64,000 nucleotides of DNA from an uncultured Christensenellaceae bacterium (GCA_910587365.1 CAJUKJ010000007.1:6133-70132), one strand, 5' to 3'. Counted from the first letter of the stretch, positions 27,791-54,311 are shown. The notes: generated from the letters alone by a model not told the origin. A program made the numbers and translations.

Positions 27791-28071
27791 AATTTTACAA
27801 ATTTTTTTATATATAAGTATTTTTATTAGTGAATTAATTGTAAAAGAGTAATTTTAGGATATATATTTTCGTATAAATCGACAATATTTTTGTTTAATTT
27901 ACATAGAAAGGTGCATTTGGGCATATAATTTAATACTTTAAATTTCGGAGAGAAGTATGTTTGACTATATTGCCGAACGAGTGATAAAGGAAGGGAATTA
28001 CATTATAGAAACAGGTACGACCGTAAGGTCGGCAGCAACACATTTCAATATTTCTAAATCTACTGTACATA
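27791..28071 (+). repeat. Left copy of the long direct repeat (spoIIID promoter plus codons 1-39)
   Basis: It aligns to 53897-54177 at an offset of 26106 nt. I saw only one T indel at the left edge and one C/T difference (28046 vs 54152). Confidence 0.95.
27903..27929 (+). promoter_or_regulatory. SigmaE-like promoter (ATA-16-CATATAAT) within the left repeat copy
   Basis: ATA at 27903-27905 and CATATAAT at 27922-27929. This resembles the mother-cell sigmaE -10 consensus CATACA-T as I recall it. B. subtilis spoIIID is sigmaE-dependent. Confidence 0.35.
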
Positions 28072-28109
28072 CGGTTGTAATAAAACAGAAAGCTTTGTAT
28101 GGCTCATAA
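27957..28109 (+). pseudogene. Truncated spoIIID 5' fragment (39 native codons plus 11 unrelated codons)
   Basis: Translates as MFDYIAERVIKEGNYIIETGTTVRSAATHFNISKSTVH, then TVVIKQKALYGS and a stop. The first 39 aa are identical to the intact gene at 54063. Confidence 0.85.
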
Positions 28110-28112
28110 ACT

Positions 28113-28146
28113 AAAATCGGGAAGCAAATGCTTCCCGATTTTTTTA
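28113..28146. terminator. Bidirectional terminator
   Basis: AAATCGGGAAGC / GCTTCCCGATTT stem with a T-run. It overlaps the permease stop codon. Confidence 0.8.
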
Positions 28147-29283
28147 TACTAAATATCCAAGTAGTAGCACACCTGTTAATATGAACAGAAATGCAAAATT
28201 GAACGCAGAGAAAATCAAAAGATATTTTCCGCCCTTACCTGGATTGTGCGAACAGTATTCCCTGAACGTTATCAGACTTGCAAGAGAGGAAATCAGCGTT
28301 CCCACACCGCCGATATTCACGCCTATTAAAAGGGGCGCGTAGTTGTCTGTAAACTGTGACAGAAGTATCGCCGACGGCACGTTACTGATTACCTGACAGG
28401 ACATTACGCTGAACAGTAGCGTGTTCAACCCCAAGAGGTACGAGAAGAACGAACGCACCACTTCGATTCTCGCCATGTTACCAGCAAATATGAAGAAGAA
28501 TACGAAGGTAAGAAGCAGGGGATAGTCAACCTTTAACAACACTTTCCTATCTACGATTATCAGCATCATAAGAATTATTGACAGCCCTATCCAGTAAGGG
28601 ACTACCCTGAATACCATTACAATCGAAAGTGTGAAAAGTATTAGATAAAGCGTTGTGCGCTTGGGCTCGGGCTTGGTCGTTTCGCCTTCGAAAACAAGCG
28701 GTTCTTTCCTGACGAATATAAAACAGCAGACCGTAATCAAGAAAATCGAAATTGCAAATGGTATCGCCATTATCGCCATAAATTCAAGAGTAGGAATATT
28801 GAACTTCGAGTAGAGGTATAAGTTCTGCGGGTTGCCGAAGGGGGTCAGCATACCGCCGAGGTTCGCCGCAATGTTCTGCATTACGAAAGTGAAAACCATA
28901 TACTTTTCTTTTCTGGTGTTCGTCAACACAATGTAGCCCAGCGGCAGAAAGGTCAACAGCGCCATGTCGTTTGCAATCAGCATCGAACCGATGAACGTTA
29001 TGTAAACAAGCGCGATTATTGAAGCCCGCGTCGTTTTAAACAGCTTGACCGTCTGCTGTGCAAGGAAGTAGAAGAAGTTCACGTTTTTTAACGCGCATAC
29101 GATAGCCAGCACGGCAAGTAGACACGACAAAGTCCGTAAGTCAAAGTAATTTAAATATTGTTCATCGGGCGGAACCAAAAAACACGTAACTATTGCAAGT
29201 AGTAACGCAATAAGCATAACAACGTTTTTTCTTGCGAATTTTAGCGTAACCCTGCCCGTTTTTCTCAACAACTCGCTTTTCAT
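28144..29283 (-). CDS. Ion-transporter superfamily permease (ArsB/NhaD / citrate-transporter-like)
   Basis: 379-aa polytopic membrane protein. MLTPFGNPQNLYLY and NIGGVGTLISSLASLI resemble the paired hairpin motifs of this superfamily. Confidence 0.7.
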   Translation of the reverse strand: MKSELLRKTGRVTLKFARKNVVMLIALLLAIVTCFLVPPDEQYLNYFDLRTLSCLLAVLAIVCALKNVNFFYFLAQQTVKLFKTTRASIIALVYITFIGSMLIANDMALLTFLPLGYIVLTNTRKEKYMVFTFVMQNIAANLGGMLTPFGNPQNLYLYSKFNIPTLEFMAIMAIPFAISIFLITVCCFIFVRKEPLVFEGETTKPEPKRTTLYLILFTLSIVMVFRVVPYWIGLSIILMMLIIVDRKVLLKVDYPLLLTFVFFFIFAGNMARIEVVRSFFSYLLGLNTLLFSVMSCQVISNVPSAILLSQFTDNYAPLLIGVNIGGVGTLISSLASLITFREYCSHNPGKGGKYLLIFSAFNFAFLFILTGVLLLGYLV

Positions 29284-29391
29284 AATCCGATTATATCACT
29301 ATTTCATAAAAAGGGCATTGTTTTAAGCATTATTTTCATATTTTTAACCAAAATAAATACAACGGCAAACTGGAAAATTTATGTAATTCTA

Positions 29392-51879: not shown

Positions 51880-53477
51880 ACAGATAGGAAGTAACAAAAT
51901 AACCGCGCTCTATTGTAGGCTCAGCCGCGACGACGAATTAAGTGGTGATTCCAACAGTATTGTGCATCAAAAAGAAATACTCTCTGCGTATGCGGATAAA
52001 CACGGCTTACAGAACACAAATTTTTATGTGTACGACGGCTATTTGGGAACAAACTTCAATCGTCCGGATTTTCAGCGAATGCTGGACGACGTCAACACCA
52101 GACTAATCGACACGATTATCGTGAAAGATATGTTGCGGTTCGGCAGGGACTACATAATGGTAGGTTACTATACCGAGATAATGCTACCGCAAATGGATAT
52201 ACGGTTCATAGCGGTAAACGACGGTGTGGACAGCGAAAATCAAGCGGACAATTATTTTACGACATTTCGGAACATAATCAACGAATAGTATGCCAAAGAC
52301 GCGAGTAAGAAAATTCGTAGCGTTCTCAAAGTTAAAGGCAATTCGGGTAAGCATTTGAGCGTTATTCAGACTTTCGGTTATATGAAAGATCCGCTCGACA
52401 AGCAGCATTGGATAATAGACGAAGAAGCTGCACAAATCGTGAGAAAGATATTCCGAACGTATCTCGACGGGAATAATATGGACAGTATCGCTCGTAAGCT
52501 CACAGCCGAAGGAATTGAAACGCCAAAACTGTAGCCGAGAACAGAGGGATAAAGCATTACAAGGCAGCAACATATCCAGAAATATGGAGCAGAATTTCCG
52601 TGAAGTATATTCTTTCCAATTACGAATATACAGGGAGTACGGTTAATTTCAAAACAAAGAGAAAATCATTCAAGAACAAGAAACAATGGATTCAGGCGAA
52701 AGAGGATTGGGCAGTGTTCGAGGGAACGCAAGAGCCTATCATCGACAAAGAAACCTTTGAAACAGTACAGAAAATGCGCGGTACAAAGCGAGCGTATACC
52801 AAATTCAACGAAATCAATATTTTTTTTGGATTGCTGTTTTGCGCAGACTATAACGGCAAGATGACAATCCGCTGCAGAGCGGACGATAGGCGAAAAGATG
52901 CTTTCATCTGTTCGACTTACCGCAAAAAGGAAAAAGGACTTTGTACCGAACATGCAATTAAGGTAAGCGATCTCGAACAAATCGTGCTTGGCGATTTACG
53001 CAAATTATGCGCGTATGTAAAAGAATACGAAACCGAGTTTGTGGAAGATTACCGTAAATGTTCGGCAAAAGAAAGCGCGAGCTTGTTAAGCGCGGCACGG
53101 AGCGAGATAAAGAAAGCGGAGAACAGACTATTCGAGATAGAGCGAATAATAGTGAAGCTCTAAGAAAAAGTTTGCGGAACAATGCCTGAAGAACGGTTTA
53201 ATTTTCTTGCAAAGAACTACGAAGTGAACAAGCGGGGTTAAAGCAAAAGGTAGAAACGCTCAAAGCCAATCTGTCGGCTATCGAGGAAAGCGAAAAGAAT
53301 ATTGCAAAGTTTGTTTCGATAATTAAGAGTTATACCGAAGTAACCGAGCTGACGCCCGAAATATTGAATAGCTTTATAGACAAAATTTACATCGGTGCGC
53401 CGCATAGAGAAAACAGAAAGCGGTTGCAAGAAGTAAAGATTATTTACAAGCTCGTAGGCGCGGTGAATATACCGTAG
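51845..53477 (+). pseudogene. Large serine recombinase (TnpX/SpoIVCA class, DUF4368-type C-terminus), multiply frameshifted
   Basis: [13 protein letters not shown] (catalytic Ser region), RFGRDY and [12 protein letters not shown]; then YAKDASKKIRSV... in a second frame; then the recombinase and zinc-ribbon-like regions; then ...EILNSFIDKIYIG...IIYKLVGAVNIP in further frames. Confidence 0.85.
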
Positions 53478-53503
53478 AAACAAAATGTGTGATTGCCTTG
53501 GGG

Positions 53504-53900
53504 ATGATAAAAAAATCCCCAAGGACAATTAGCACATACGAAATGGAATTGCAAGTATCACATAGTGTTCGCACCGAAGTACAGACGAAAAGTATTTATT
53601 GAAGAGAAGCGTTTAGAAATACGTGAAATATTGCGCACATTATGCCAATGGAAAGGAGTAGAGGTAATCGAGGGCGTAATATGTCCAGATCATATACATA
53701 TGTTGGTAAGTATACCACCCAAAATGAGAGTTGCGGGGTTTATGGGATATTTGAAAGGAAAAAGTAGCCTTATGATAAACCAAAAGTGTGGGAATATGAA
53801 ATTTGCATACCGCAATCGCGAATTTTGGTGTAAAGGTTACTATGTGGATACGGTAGGCAAAAATACTGCTACAATAAAAGAGTATATAGCAAGCCAATTT
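53504..53900 (+). mobile_element. tnpA: IS200/IS605-family tnpA (Y1 HUH transposase), frameshifted at the 5' end and truncated at the 3' end
   Basis: LAHTKWNCKYHIVFAPKYRRK...CPDHIHMLVSIPPK...GYLKGKSS...YRNREFWCKGYYVDTVG. The ATG at 53504 is 61 nt (one nt out of frame) from the GTG at 53565, across a run of seven A. Homology ends at the repeat edge, about 53897. Confidence 0.8.
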
Positions 53901-54177
53901 TTACAAATTTTTTTATATATAAGTATTTTTATTAGTGAATTAATTGTAAAAGAGTAATTTTAGGATATATATTTTCGTATAAATCGACAATATTTTTGTT
54001 TAATTTACATAGAAAGGTGCATTTGGGCATATAATTTAATACTTTAAATTTCGGAGAGAAGTATGTTTGACTATATTGCCGAACGAGTGATAAAGGAAGG
54101 GAATTACATTATAGAAACAGGTACGACCGTAAGGTCGGCAGCAACACATTTTAATATTTCTAAATCTACTGTACATA
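53897..54177 (+). repeat. Right copy of the long direct repeat (spoIIID promoter plus codons 1-39)
   Basis: See the left copy at 27791-28071. This copy continues into the rest of spoIIID. Confidence 0.95.
54009..54035 (+). promoter_or_regulatory. SigmaE-like promoter of spoIIID
   Basis: Same sequence as 27903-27929 (ATA-16-CATATAAT), about 28 nt upstream of the ATG. Confidence 0.35.
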
Positions 54178-54311
54178 AAGATGTAACTGAACGACTTAAA
54201 GGTATTGACAGGCAACTTTATATAGAAGTAAGGGAGGTTCTTAATAAAAACCTCTCGGAGCGGCATATTCGCGGAGGTTTAGCAACAAGGAATAAATATT
54301 TAAACAAATAA
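54063..54311 (+). CDS. spoIIID: Stage III sporulation transcriptional regulator SpoIIID
   Basis: 82 aa: MFDYIAERVIKEGNYIIETGTTVRSAATHFNISKSTVHKDVTERL...RHIRGGLATRNKY. It is colinear with B. subtilis SpoIIID as I recall it (KSTVHKD.TERL, RH.RGG.AT). Confidence 0.92.
   Translation: MFDYIAERVIKEGNYIIETGTTVRSAATHFNISKSTVHKDVTERLKGIDRQLYIEVREVLNKNLSERHIRGGLATRNKYLNK

Follow-up and report, generated by a model that had tools for sequence, protein, structure and literature searches.

Within the 64,000-nt stretch of DNA analysed here (the window), a segment bounded by two copies of the 5′ part of the sporulation gene spoIIID is most likely the immobilised remnant of a genomic island that had intervened in spoIIID, the gene having been restored by a second 5′ copy (Table 1). 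Self-comparison of the window revealed a 279-bp direct repeat at an offset of 26,106 nt, the copies of which differ at one base (C/T, 28046 versus 54152); allowing one T indel extends the match by about 2 nt leftward. A match of this quality is far beyond what chance can account for. The repeat comprises the spoIIID promoter region and codons 1–39. In translation the left copy reads MFDY...KSTVH and then, after 11 unrelated codons, stops; exactly this 50-aa stub was called as a product on contigs from 58 blocks of the public collection. The 82-aa protein of the right copy matched the Pfam SpoIIID family (PF12116, E = 7e-35) and the Bacillus subtilis SpoIIID structure (PDB 2L0K). The preliminary description, made from the window sequence, had reported the repeats at this offset with one T indel and one C/T difference, the spoIIID upstream region plus codons 1–39 as their content, a complete SpoIIID on the right, and on the left a divergence after codon 39 with a stop 11 codons on; each of these observations was reproduced. 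It had also described the upstream context of the left copy as continuous with the regulatory islet, and the left flank is indeed native: it runs on into spoIIID in an empty-site strain of the same species (contig L008), and the Lon...spoIIID–activase gene order is kept in related species, where spoIIID is uninterrupted. A scan for housekeeping promoters around the repeats scored no better than shuffled sequences and is uninformative for sporulation sigma factors.

Table 1 Features of the island and of its two boundaries, in window coordinates
Feature	Position	Strand	Basis
Repeat, left copy: native spoIIID upstream region and codons 1–39	27793..28071	+	Continuous with native left flank in empty-site strain L008
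Truncated spoIIID ORF, 50 aa (39 native and 11 element-derived codons)	27957..28109	+	Translation
attL	28044..28093	+	spoIIID arm 28044-28067; CA crossover 28068-28069; element-side P′ arm TACGGTTGTAATAAAACAGAAAGC 28070-28093
Strong hairpin terminator directly 3′ of the truncated ORF, placed to serve the convergent permease gene too	28113..28142	+	13-bp stem, then T run
CitMHS-family permease, left-end cargo gene	28144..29283	-	Pfam PF03600, E 6e-26
Polysaccharide locus (capsule/EPS or O-antigen-like)	29457..46270	+	Domain content, low-GC core
Nested decayed mobilizable element	47115..53536	+	L059/L060 and L058 are homologous up to 53536
ORFs homologous to genes of DUF4368-LSR elements	47115-49515	+	Homology
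NikA-like gene	49825-49992	+	Remnant in nested element
Relaxase, in-frame stop	50045-51190	+	73.5% identical to L046 relaxase, broken
DUF4368-type large serine recombinase (LSR) pseudogene, two in-frame stops and two frameshifts	51845..53477	+	DUF4368 domain
IS200 remnant, right end missing	53537..53898	+	NCBIfam NF033573, model positions 17-125 of 126
Repeat, right copy, runs on into the rest of spoIIID	53899..54177	+	Repeat comparison, contig junctions
Intact spoIIID, 82 aa; unoccupied attB-like site with CA at 54174-54175	54063..54311	+	Translation, Pfam, arm comparison

The presence of two repeat copies is supported by independent data. Each junction is carried by more than eight independent assemblies, and Logan contigs from three samples (L054, L055 and L057) all end at window position 28016, 30 nt past the C/T difference; Logan assemblies use k = 31, so the stop is the break expected of such an assembly graph when both copies are present in the samples. 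We consider it very unlikely that the window is an artefact in which the assembler mis-threaded the 279-bp repeat, the true state being a 26.1-kb circle beside a chromosome with an empty spoIIID, or a mixture of strains. The repeat does exceed the k-mer lengths usual in short-read assembly, L008 does show an empty junction, and one contig (L014) joins IS200, repeat, stub and permease as a circle or tandem would. However, the strain behind L008 is diverged and has differences of its own within the repeat; there, it is C253 that leads into the 3′ half, but in window-type assemblies T253 always leads into the 3′ half and C253 into the stub. Against the one L014, at least eight assemblies read from flank through repeat into stub and at least eight from IS200 through repeat into the intact gene. 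No replication gene was recognised among the ORFs and domains between the repeats, and a circle, even if real, would be expected from recombination between two integrated repeats. The L014 join itself fits a circle form, a tandem form or an assembler error, and an episomal state is possible.

Relatives carry both the empty site and the interrupted spoIIID with an intact recombinase that the preliminary description had proposed to look for. The empty site lies in L008, of the same species, whose left and right flanks are 97.7% and 99.5% identical to those of the window. Because C253 joins the 3′ half there, and T253 does so in window-type strains, we regard L008 as a real allele; a chimeric path through the repeat was ruled out by this C/T linkage and by the private differences. 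The live allele, also of the same species, lies in L044, whose right flank is 98.99% identical from window position 54168 on: an intact 511-aa LSR ends on spoIIID residues 36–82, with no 5′ copy, and contig L061 extends the L044-type element leftward to a permease. The same arrangement, an LSR gene abutting the 3′ half of spoIIID, was found in L041, L042, L046, L047 and Ruminococcaceae bacterium AM07-15 (L064), and both element junctions are seen in L032 and L037. The last two contigs have a complete spoIIID beside the split one; we rejected them as parallel rescue duplications, as their two copies are diverged paralogues. Other Clostridia, one cultured isolate among them, likewise have the spoIIID-type LSR paired with this site, which a phage contig contains in its attP form. 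The insertion thus lies inside a mother-cell sporulation gene (attL in codon 39) for which uninterrupted alleles exist in L008 and in related species, and the proposed insertion at codon 39/40 is borne out by L008, L044 and the symmetry of the attP arms.

The attL crossover dinucleotide, CA, forms the first two bases of codon 39 (CAT, His39), in a conserved segment, SKSTVHKD, that we take to be the recognition helix of SpoIIID. Reverse-complemented, the element-side P′ arm agrees with the P arm of live attR sites at 15–17 of 22 nt (null mean 5.8, sd 2.1; P(>=15) = 2.5e-5); there is also agreement, at 16 of 24 nt, with the P′ arm of the L037 attL. Since the element-side arm mirrors the right arm of live elements, the left junction of the window is a genuine attL. 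Inverted arms around CA are seen both in the composite attP and in the native attP of phage contig L066, where the LSR gene is followed by an intact palindromic site, in line with the ~50-bp attP of LSRs. An exact-pattern scan of viral contigs with a composite attP, CGACCGTACATACGGTTG, gave no match; the attP-form contigs (L066 and L067) were instead found by a protein scan. The spoIIID-type LSRs of L041 and L044 contain resolvase catalytic (PF00239), Recombinase (PF07508) and zinc ribbon (PF13408) domains, and their nearest solved structure is SprA/YokA of SPbeta. Neither the look-up with the permease nor that with a glycosyltransferase of the live element extended as far as the L044-type attL, contig L061 ending inside the permease; arm symmetry and shared gene organisation suggest that this attL is the same site as in the window. 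On the right side of the window, an uninterrupted attB-like sequence follows the duplicated 5′ segment and the truncated IS200.

ORF and domain searches between the repeats agreed with the earlier reading of this region as a permease, an AT-rich polysaccharide locus and a decayed mobilizable element. The permease found at the same place in the live same-species element (L061/L044) is only 86.8% identical, the chromosome flanks being 99% identical. The polysaccharide locus encodes DegT aminotransferases, an initiating sugar transferase, glycosyltransferases, Wzy and a flippase, together with RmlA, RmlC, RmlB, an epimerase and a UDP-sugar dehydrogenase; its core has a GC content of 27–36% versus 42–50% in the flanks, and its gene content differs among strains (L011, L044/L061). 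That such a locus is cargo of the spoIIID-interrupting element family is supported by L044/L061 and L046.

An intact LSR gene next to the att site, present in L041, L042, L044, L046, L047 and L064, is missing from the window, and neither the spoIIID-type LSR nor its accompanying small ORF was found there on comparison with the versions in live elements. The preliminary description had placed the LSR gene of the decayed element at the spoIIID-proximal end, where a pseudogene does lie, and had read this decayed recombinase (51.8–53.5 kb) as the island's integrase, decayed in place, with an in-place segmental duplication rebuilding the gene. The position of the pseudogene and the mobilization genes adjoining it speak for that account, which we nonetheless find highly improbable. 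The window LSR is only 29% identical to the LSRs that abut spoIIID 3′ halves, including those of the same species; its intact homologues, 80–87% identical, end conjugative or BREX-carrying elements at other sites and were never found beside spoIIID; and its stop codon is ~700 bp from spoIIID codon 40, whereas live LSR genes end on the crossover. The attL, moreover, fits the attP arms of the other LSR family. The DUF4368 pseudogene is part of the nested mobilizable element and not the island's own integrase. As a matter of logic rather than computation, an in-place duplication covering the 5′ part of the split gene yields only a second attL and no uninterrupted junction; the gene must in addition have undergone an excision step or received an intact allele from outside. 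A fossil element with the promoter and 5′ segment present twice therefore stands; duplication alone as the means of rebuilding the gene does not, because it cannot recreate the 5′–3′ junction.

The right copy begins at a break in the IS200, as had been noted from the sequence: the tnpA frame (53565–53957) is cut near its C-terminus and reads into the repeat, with no further IS sequence, so that a complete IS200/IS605 element (a whole Y1 transposase gene and both subterminal ends) is absent from the window. All strains with the right copy, an L005-type prophage variant among them, share one and the same IS200–repeat junction, which indicates a single origin of that copy; this junction is the scar left by the restoration of spoIIID. 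The right copy is identical to the host's own upstream region at 278 of 279 positions and is thus host-derived.

The frozen state would have arisen in steps. A member of the element family, whose hallmark is a ~511-aa LSR encoded at the extreme right end, would have inserted into spoIIID through crossover by its serine recombinase at the codon-39 CA, leaving attL at 28068/28069 and bringing in the permease and polysaccharide locus as cargo. The region near the right end of the island would then have received an IS200 and a small mobilizable element encoding a DUF4368-type recombinase of its own. Next, in a single event, the IS200 would have been fused to the spoIIID upstream region at position -166, with loss of the island's recombinase, the companion small ORF and attR, and the host-derived promoter and 5′ segment would have become continuous with the 3′ half; SpoIIID would from then on be made without DNA excision. 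Site-specific excision of the island is no longer possible, attL being left without a partner. The joining event would have taken one of three routes: import of an empty-site allele through one homologous and one illegitimate crossover, Campbell-type re-entry of an aberrantly excised circle via the 279-bp homology, or a partial duplication in tandem, after which the LSR would have excised the distal copy precisely. One C/T difference is too little to settle the order of events or the route of the right copy. Decay of the nested element's genes would have come last.

In a different account, raised as an alternative in the preliminary description, the element natively carries a replacement spoIIID promoter and 5′ end, as SXT does in prfC, and the gene was never inactivated. 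SXT/R391 integrates into prfC via a tyrosine integrase, and its replacement 5′ end is native to the element. The present structure is functionally equivalent, in that a functional gene is fed by an element-proximal copy supplying the promoter and codons 1–39. Yet in six live family members the end of the LSR gene abuts the 3′ half and no 5′ segment intervenes, so that native replacement fails as a family trait; no spoIIID 5′ segment was found in live integrated relatives, nor in the attP-form contigs L066 and L067; the near-identity of the right copy to the host's upstream region also speaks against it; and the right copy is joined to a truncated IS200 and not to an attP arm. This account has hardly any chance of being correct. 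Unlike the native replacement of SXT/R391, the second 5′ segment is a host-derived duplicate gained secondarily, and live family members are without it.

The immobilised island can be set beside known elements in mother-cell sporulation genes: skin in sigK (recombinase SpoIVCA) and SPbeta in spsM (SprA/SprB) of B. subtilis, and skinCd of Clostridioides difficile. As in these, an edge-encoded LSR adjoins the 3′ fragment in the live family members, and cargo is unrelated between elements. By contrast, the target here is an earlier mother-cell regulator, the cargo is a permease and a polysaccharide locus rather than phage genes, and the window element has lost its LSR and attR, the gene being whole without excision. 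In B. subtilis, SpoIIID is needed to switch on spoIVCA. The location of the skin LSR gene at the element edge, beside the gene's 3′ fragment, is described by Galperin et al. (2022, bioRxiv 10.1101/2022.02.25.481979), who also note in one sentence that spoIIID of Ruminiclostridium cellulolyticum is split by a skin-like element (section 16 and Table S3); the preliminary statement that no spoIIID-intervening element had been described was thus overstated. The two share a target gene; the passage in question gives no insertion site, att sequence or cargo, whereas the window holds a fossil with a rebuilt gene and its species also holds empty and live alleles. Another non-prophage gene-intervening element, gin in gerE of Bacillus cereus ATCC 10987, is active during sporulation (Abe et al. 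2017, PMC5595907). It resembles ours in lying in the gene of a small mother-cell transcription factor but differs in target, cargo and size, the window island being 26 kb and immobilised. The gin element is reportedly small and excised by a serine recombinase.

On the model of skin and SPbeta, we infer that in live relatives the LSR, with a directionality factor, would excise the element in the mother cell and rebuild spoIIID. Programmed excision from sporulation genes is a classic developmental DNA rearrangement, described mainly for late genes of Bacilli and for sigK; here, one and the same codon of spoIIID is targeted repeatedly, in several lineages of Clostridia and in a phage, and the cargo can be a whole surface-polysaccharide locus. 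We put at about even the chance of a broader picture in which spoIIID is a widely used landing site, across gut Clostridia, of one serine-recombinase element family that includes phages, mobilizable elements and polysaccharide islands. Production of the regulator would then depend on programmed excision in many species, a surface-polysaccharide locus kept by the spore would be lost from the terminal mother cell, and the window would represent a host escape allele with the gene rebuilt and the island frozen, empty, live and frozen states segregating in one species. Such alleles form a natural series on host dependence on, or escape from, these elements. The live arrangement in cultured Ruminococcaceae bacterium AM07-15 (GCA_003477405.1, contig QUDE01000007.1) makes the excision hypothesis directly testable, and the att sites add an LSR/attB/attP set, characterised in silico, of potential use in genome engineering.

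Directly upstream of the LSR gene in L042, L044, L046, L047, L066 and L067 lies a conserved small ORF with the motif KLN[YF]RFHNPN, which may serve as a lead to a recombination directionality factor. Candidate housekeeping-type promoter hexamers, judged by eye, are present upstream of the LSR gene in L044, L046 and L064.

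Alignment of both ends of the 26-kb island revealed a 279-bp direct repeat at an offset of 26106, comprising the spoIIID promoter region and codons 1–39, in which a C/T at 28046/54152 is the sole difference between copies. In translation, the left copy gives SpoIIID residues 1–39 followed by 11 unrelated codons and a stop; the right copy runs on into an 82-aa protein. This protein has a Pfam SpoIIID match (E 7e-35) and can be aligned with B. subtilis SpoIIID (PDB 2L0K) from end to end, the conserved SKSTVHKD segment included. The preliminary description of the repeat, the truncated left ORF, the intact right gene and the contents between them was therefore accurate. 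Both junctions recur in independent public assemblies, flank–repeat–truncated ORF–permease in contigs L011–L013 and L015–L019 and IS200–repeat–intact spoIIID in L001–L004, L007 and L009, and repeat position 253 is C in all left copies and T in all right copies. Three Logan contigs, each from a different sample and each 100% identical to the window, stop at 28016, exactly 30 nt past the C/T site, where a branch point is expected in a k=31 graph (which we take to be the k of the Logan assembly) with both copies present. In one MAG contig (L014, GCA_948792895.1 CAQGEK010000036.1, 9475–10190), IS200, repeat, truncated ORF and permease are joined, which may reflect a 26.1-kb circle or tandem array formed by recombination between the repeats, or a mis-threaded assembly path.

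Features of the window and of related contigs
Feature	Sequence	Position	Strand	Remark
Left repeat copy	window	27793–28071		279 bp
Right repeat copy	window	53899–54177		279 bp
Truncated spoIIID ORF	window	27957–28109		in left copy
Terminator	window	28113–28142		13-bp stem, 3′ of truncated ORF
TACGACCGTA	window	28016–28025; 54122–54131		spoIIID codons 20–23
CitMHS permease	window		minus	between repeat copies
Polysaccharide locus	window			about 17 kb, low GC; between repeat copies
Mobilization-gene remnants	window			between repeat copies
Segments homologous to DUF4368-LSR elements	window	47115–49515; 51459–53536
NikA/relaxase module	window	49606–51382
Broken LSR (pseudogene)	window	51845–53477		between repeat copies
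IS200 transposase gene	window			between repeat copies; frame continues into right copy
Second variable island	window	58736–64000
Tyrosine integrase	window	58887–59831		second variable island
Helicase	window			788 aa; second variable island
Start of second polysaccharide locus	window			DegT aminotransferase, sugar transferase; second variable island
KLN[YF]RFHNPN ORF	L042	914–1183
KLN[YF]RFHNPN ORF	L044	9386–9880
KLN[YF]RFHNPN ORF	L046	9394–9888
KLN[YF]RFHNPN ORF	L047	222–428
KLN[YF]RFHNPN ORF	L066	9730–9879
KLN[YF]RFHNPN ORF	L067	9670–9897

Both arrangements that the preliminary description had proposed to look for in relatives, an empty site and an interrupted spoIIID with an intact recombinase, were found. 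The empty site is in L008, a Logan contig with one repeat unit, a full spoIIID and nothing between the flanks (left flank native and 97.7% identical, right flank 99.5% identical). Its repeat unit carries two private differences, and its C253 is linked to the 3′ half, opposite to window-type strains; these features rule out a mis-threaded assembly path, and L008 is therefore a real allele. In related species, with SpoIIID about 80% identical, the order Lon...spoIIID–activase–p423 is kept and the gene is uninterrupted. The empty state is ancestral.

When one genome per species was scanned with SpoIIID, contigs having only the 3′ half of the gene were recovered (L041–L043), and in L041 and L042 an intact gene for a 511/512-aa large serine recombinase (LSR) ends exactly on that half. 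A search with this LSR, followed by context retrieval, yielded L044 (ENA ERZ28595686 scaffold_717), which is 98.99% identical to window 54168–58735 in its right flank and therefore belongs to the same species. In L044 the intact LSR gene ends on spoIIID residues 36–82 without a 5′ copy between, and two small ORFs and a polysaccharide locus lie upstream; L061, which overlaps L044 at 99.7%, reaches leftward as far as a CitMHS permease only 86.8% identical to that of the window. This live element of about 20 kb has the layout of the window island (permease, polysaccharide locus, recombinase end) and is 13–27% diverged from it, whereas the chromosomes are about 99% identical; the two represent different variants of one element family. 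The LSR also sits on the 3′ half in L046, alongside NikA-like and relaxase genes, in L047, and in the cultured isolate Ruminococcaceae bacterium AM07-15 (L064), alongside HTH, AAA, NikA-like and relaxase genes, and both spoIIID halves and the LSR are on a single contig in L032 and L037. These last two, from distant genomes (Bacillota bacterium OH_HBB_66, 662–7795, and Anaerocolumna sp., 3485–8969), each hold a tandem pair of diverged spoIIID paralogues, in which a 4.8–6 kb element with an LSR 45–47% identical splits the second paralogue at the same codon. Several related-species contigs break a few bases from the crossover or just upstream of spoIIID (L043 at position 1, L022 and L026 at their ends), a pattern that a mixture of occupied and empty forms in the samples would be expected to produce.

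The live right junctions read ...ACGACCGTA-CA-TAAAGA... and the window left junction reads ...ACTGTA-CA-TACGGTTGTAATAAAACAG. Reverse-complemented, the 22 element-side nt of the window junction agree with those of the live right junctions at 17/22 positions (L041, L046) or 15/22 (L044, L047), against a mean of 5.8 (sd 2.1) for random window 22-mers, among which at least 15 matches occur at a frequency of 2.5e-5; the window left junction is therefore a genuine attL. Put together, the two arms give an inverted-repeat attP of the kind expected for an LSR; at its centre is a non-palindromic CA, which provides the first two bases of codon 39. Because GTACATA is common to attP and attB, divergence had initially been placed after codon 39. 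For the attL of L044-type strains, the predicted sequence is ...ACTGTA-CA-TACGG..., and its P′ arm would be the complement of CCGTTCTAATTGATACCGACCGTA. An intact attP, CCGTTCTA...CGACCGTG-CA-TACAGTAG...TAGAACGG, follows a 71%-identical LSR in L066, a 62-kb IMG/VR phage contig encoding DNA polymerase, helicase, ligase, endolysin and tail fibres, and L067 is similar. Thus the empty L008, the live L044 and the attL arm match bear out the core idea of the preliminary description, an element inserted in spoIIID at codon 39/40, and the feature is real; its account of the recombinase responsible, the rebuilding route and novelty did not hold. Within spoIIID itself, TACGACCGTA equals the inner 10 nt of the attP P arm (..TTACGACCGTA-CA) and lies in a small hairpin-like palindrome, CGACC GTAA GGTCG; this match may be chance or a pseudo-site.

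Among the 120 best LSR homologues, 79 are 511–517 aa long and end ...T, with a stop codon at once. In the sequences read (L041 1537–1552; L044 about 11525–11536; proteins P0022, P0024 and P0034), no stop codon belonging to the LSR gene precedes the crossover, and in the integrated state the stop is the TAA of spoIIID CAT-AAA just past it; a few homologues read through as ...TYGC..., as the attP form would, and the frame likewise continues in attP-form contigs. Integration and excision thus leave the recombinase with different C termini. From the analogy of skin/SpoIVCA and SPbeta/SprA–SprB, we infer that in mother cells of the live relatives the element would be cut out by the LSR together with a directionality factor. 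Good housekeeping-type −35/−10 hexamers, identified by eye, precede the LSR in L044, L046 and L064. In islands, mobilizable elements and phage-type contigs alike, the spoIIID-type LSR is immediately preceded by a small ORF whose N terminus carries the conserved motif KLN[YF]RFHNPN. A scan of the L044 copy alone gave no Pfam or NCBIfam match; the ORF product is a candidate for a directionality factor or an accessory protein.

The decayed recombinase of the window had been taken for the island's own integrase. Its reconstructed pseudogene encodes a 543-aa LSR with a DUF4368 C-terminal domain, interrupted by two in-frame stops and two frameshifts relative to an intact homologue (86% identical). 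That reading is contradicted by its mere 29% identity to the spoIIID-type LSR and by its intact 80–87% homologues, which stand at the ends of other elements and in no case adjoin spoIIID. An intact DUF4368-type LSR ends a conjugative element in L058, with the same IS200 after it, and an intact homologue ends a BREX-carrying element in L059/L060, downstream of which the sequence resembles a tRNA gene 3′ end. Two window segments are homologous to such elements, and the NikA/relaxase module, related to that of L046, has a nonsense codon in the relaxase; 47.1–53.5 kb is therefore a nested, decayed mobilizable element. Neither the spoIIID-type LSR nor the ORFs of 149 and 164 aa found ahead of it in L044 have left a trace in the window. 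The decayed recombinase is a passenger. The same hairpin and IS200 start follow the DUF4368-type LSR in the window (53478–53572) and in the unrelated conjugative element of L058 (11641–11733); either the LSR–IS200 adjacency is inherited as a module or the hairpin is a preferred IS200 target.

At the right copy, the IS200 transposase frame is cut near its end and the right terminus is missing, which rules out an IS insertion; the join is an illegitimate junction. It is identical in every strain with a right copy, including the L005/L006/L010 type, in which a prophage replaces everything left of 53744, and therefore had a single origin. In that type (L005 1–9681, ENA ERZ28570373 scaffold_391; also L006, L010 1–49) the prophage, with baseplate J, tail, XkdX, reverse transcriptase and HicAB genes, borders the IS200 remnant at the point corresponding to window 53744. 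Duplication in place, the rebuilding route originally proposed, is insufficient alone because duplicating the 5′ part of an interrupted gene merely copies attL, so the uninterrupted 5′–3′ junction must come from another source, for which we infer three possible routes. An intact allele could have come from an empty-site strain, through homologous recombination in the right flank and an illegitimate crossover at IS200/−166; a circle aberrantly excised with the 5′ segment could have re-entered through the 279-bp homology; or a partial tandem duplication could have arisen, with its distal unit then precisely excised by the LSR. The outcome is a constitutively whole spoIIID and an island incapable of site-specific excision, which could still be lost through recombination between the repeats.

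Targets of intervening elements in the literature include sigK, spsM, gerE and others. A statement in Galperin et al. 2022 (bioRxiv 10.1101/2022.02.25.481979) has skin-like elements interrupting cotJC of Laceyella sacchari and spoIIID of Ruminiclostridium cellulolyticum; spoIIID is therefore not new as a target, as had been claimed, and the literature searched links it to an intervening element nowhere else. In that literature we found no prior description of the precise spoIIID insertion site and att arms, of the breadth of the spoIIID-targeting family, of a frozen allele with a rebuilt spoIIID, or of empty, live and frozen alleles together in one species, and the polysaccharide cargo, as first suggested, likewise has none.

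Strains with the same attL and permease differ in their glycosyltransferase, polymerase and flippase sets (L011 12748–20153 versus window 30704 onward), and the island's polysaccharide locus is a variable region of serotype-like character. Directly after the p423 gene, a second variable island begins. In L006, L010 and L044, homology to the window ends at 58735, and PNPOx, acetyltransferase and transketolase genes are found there instead.
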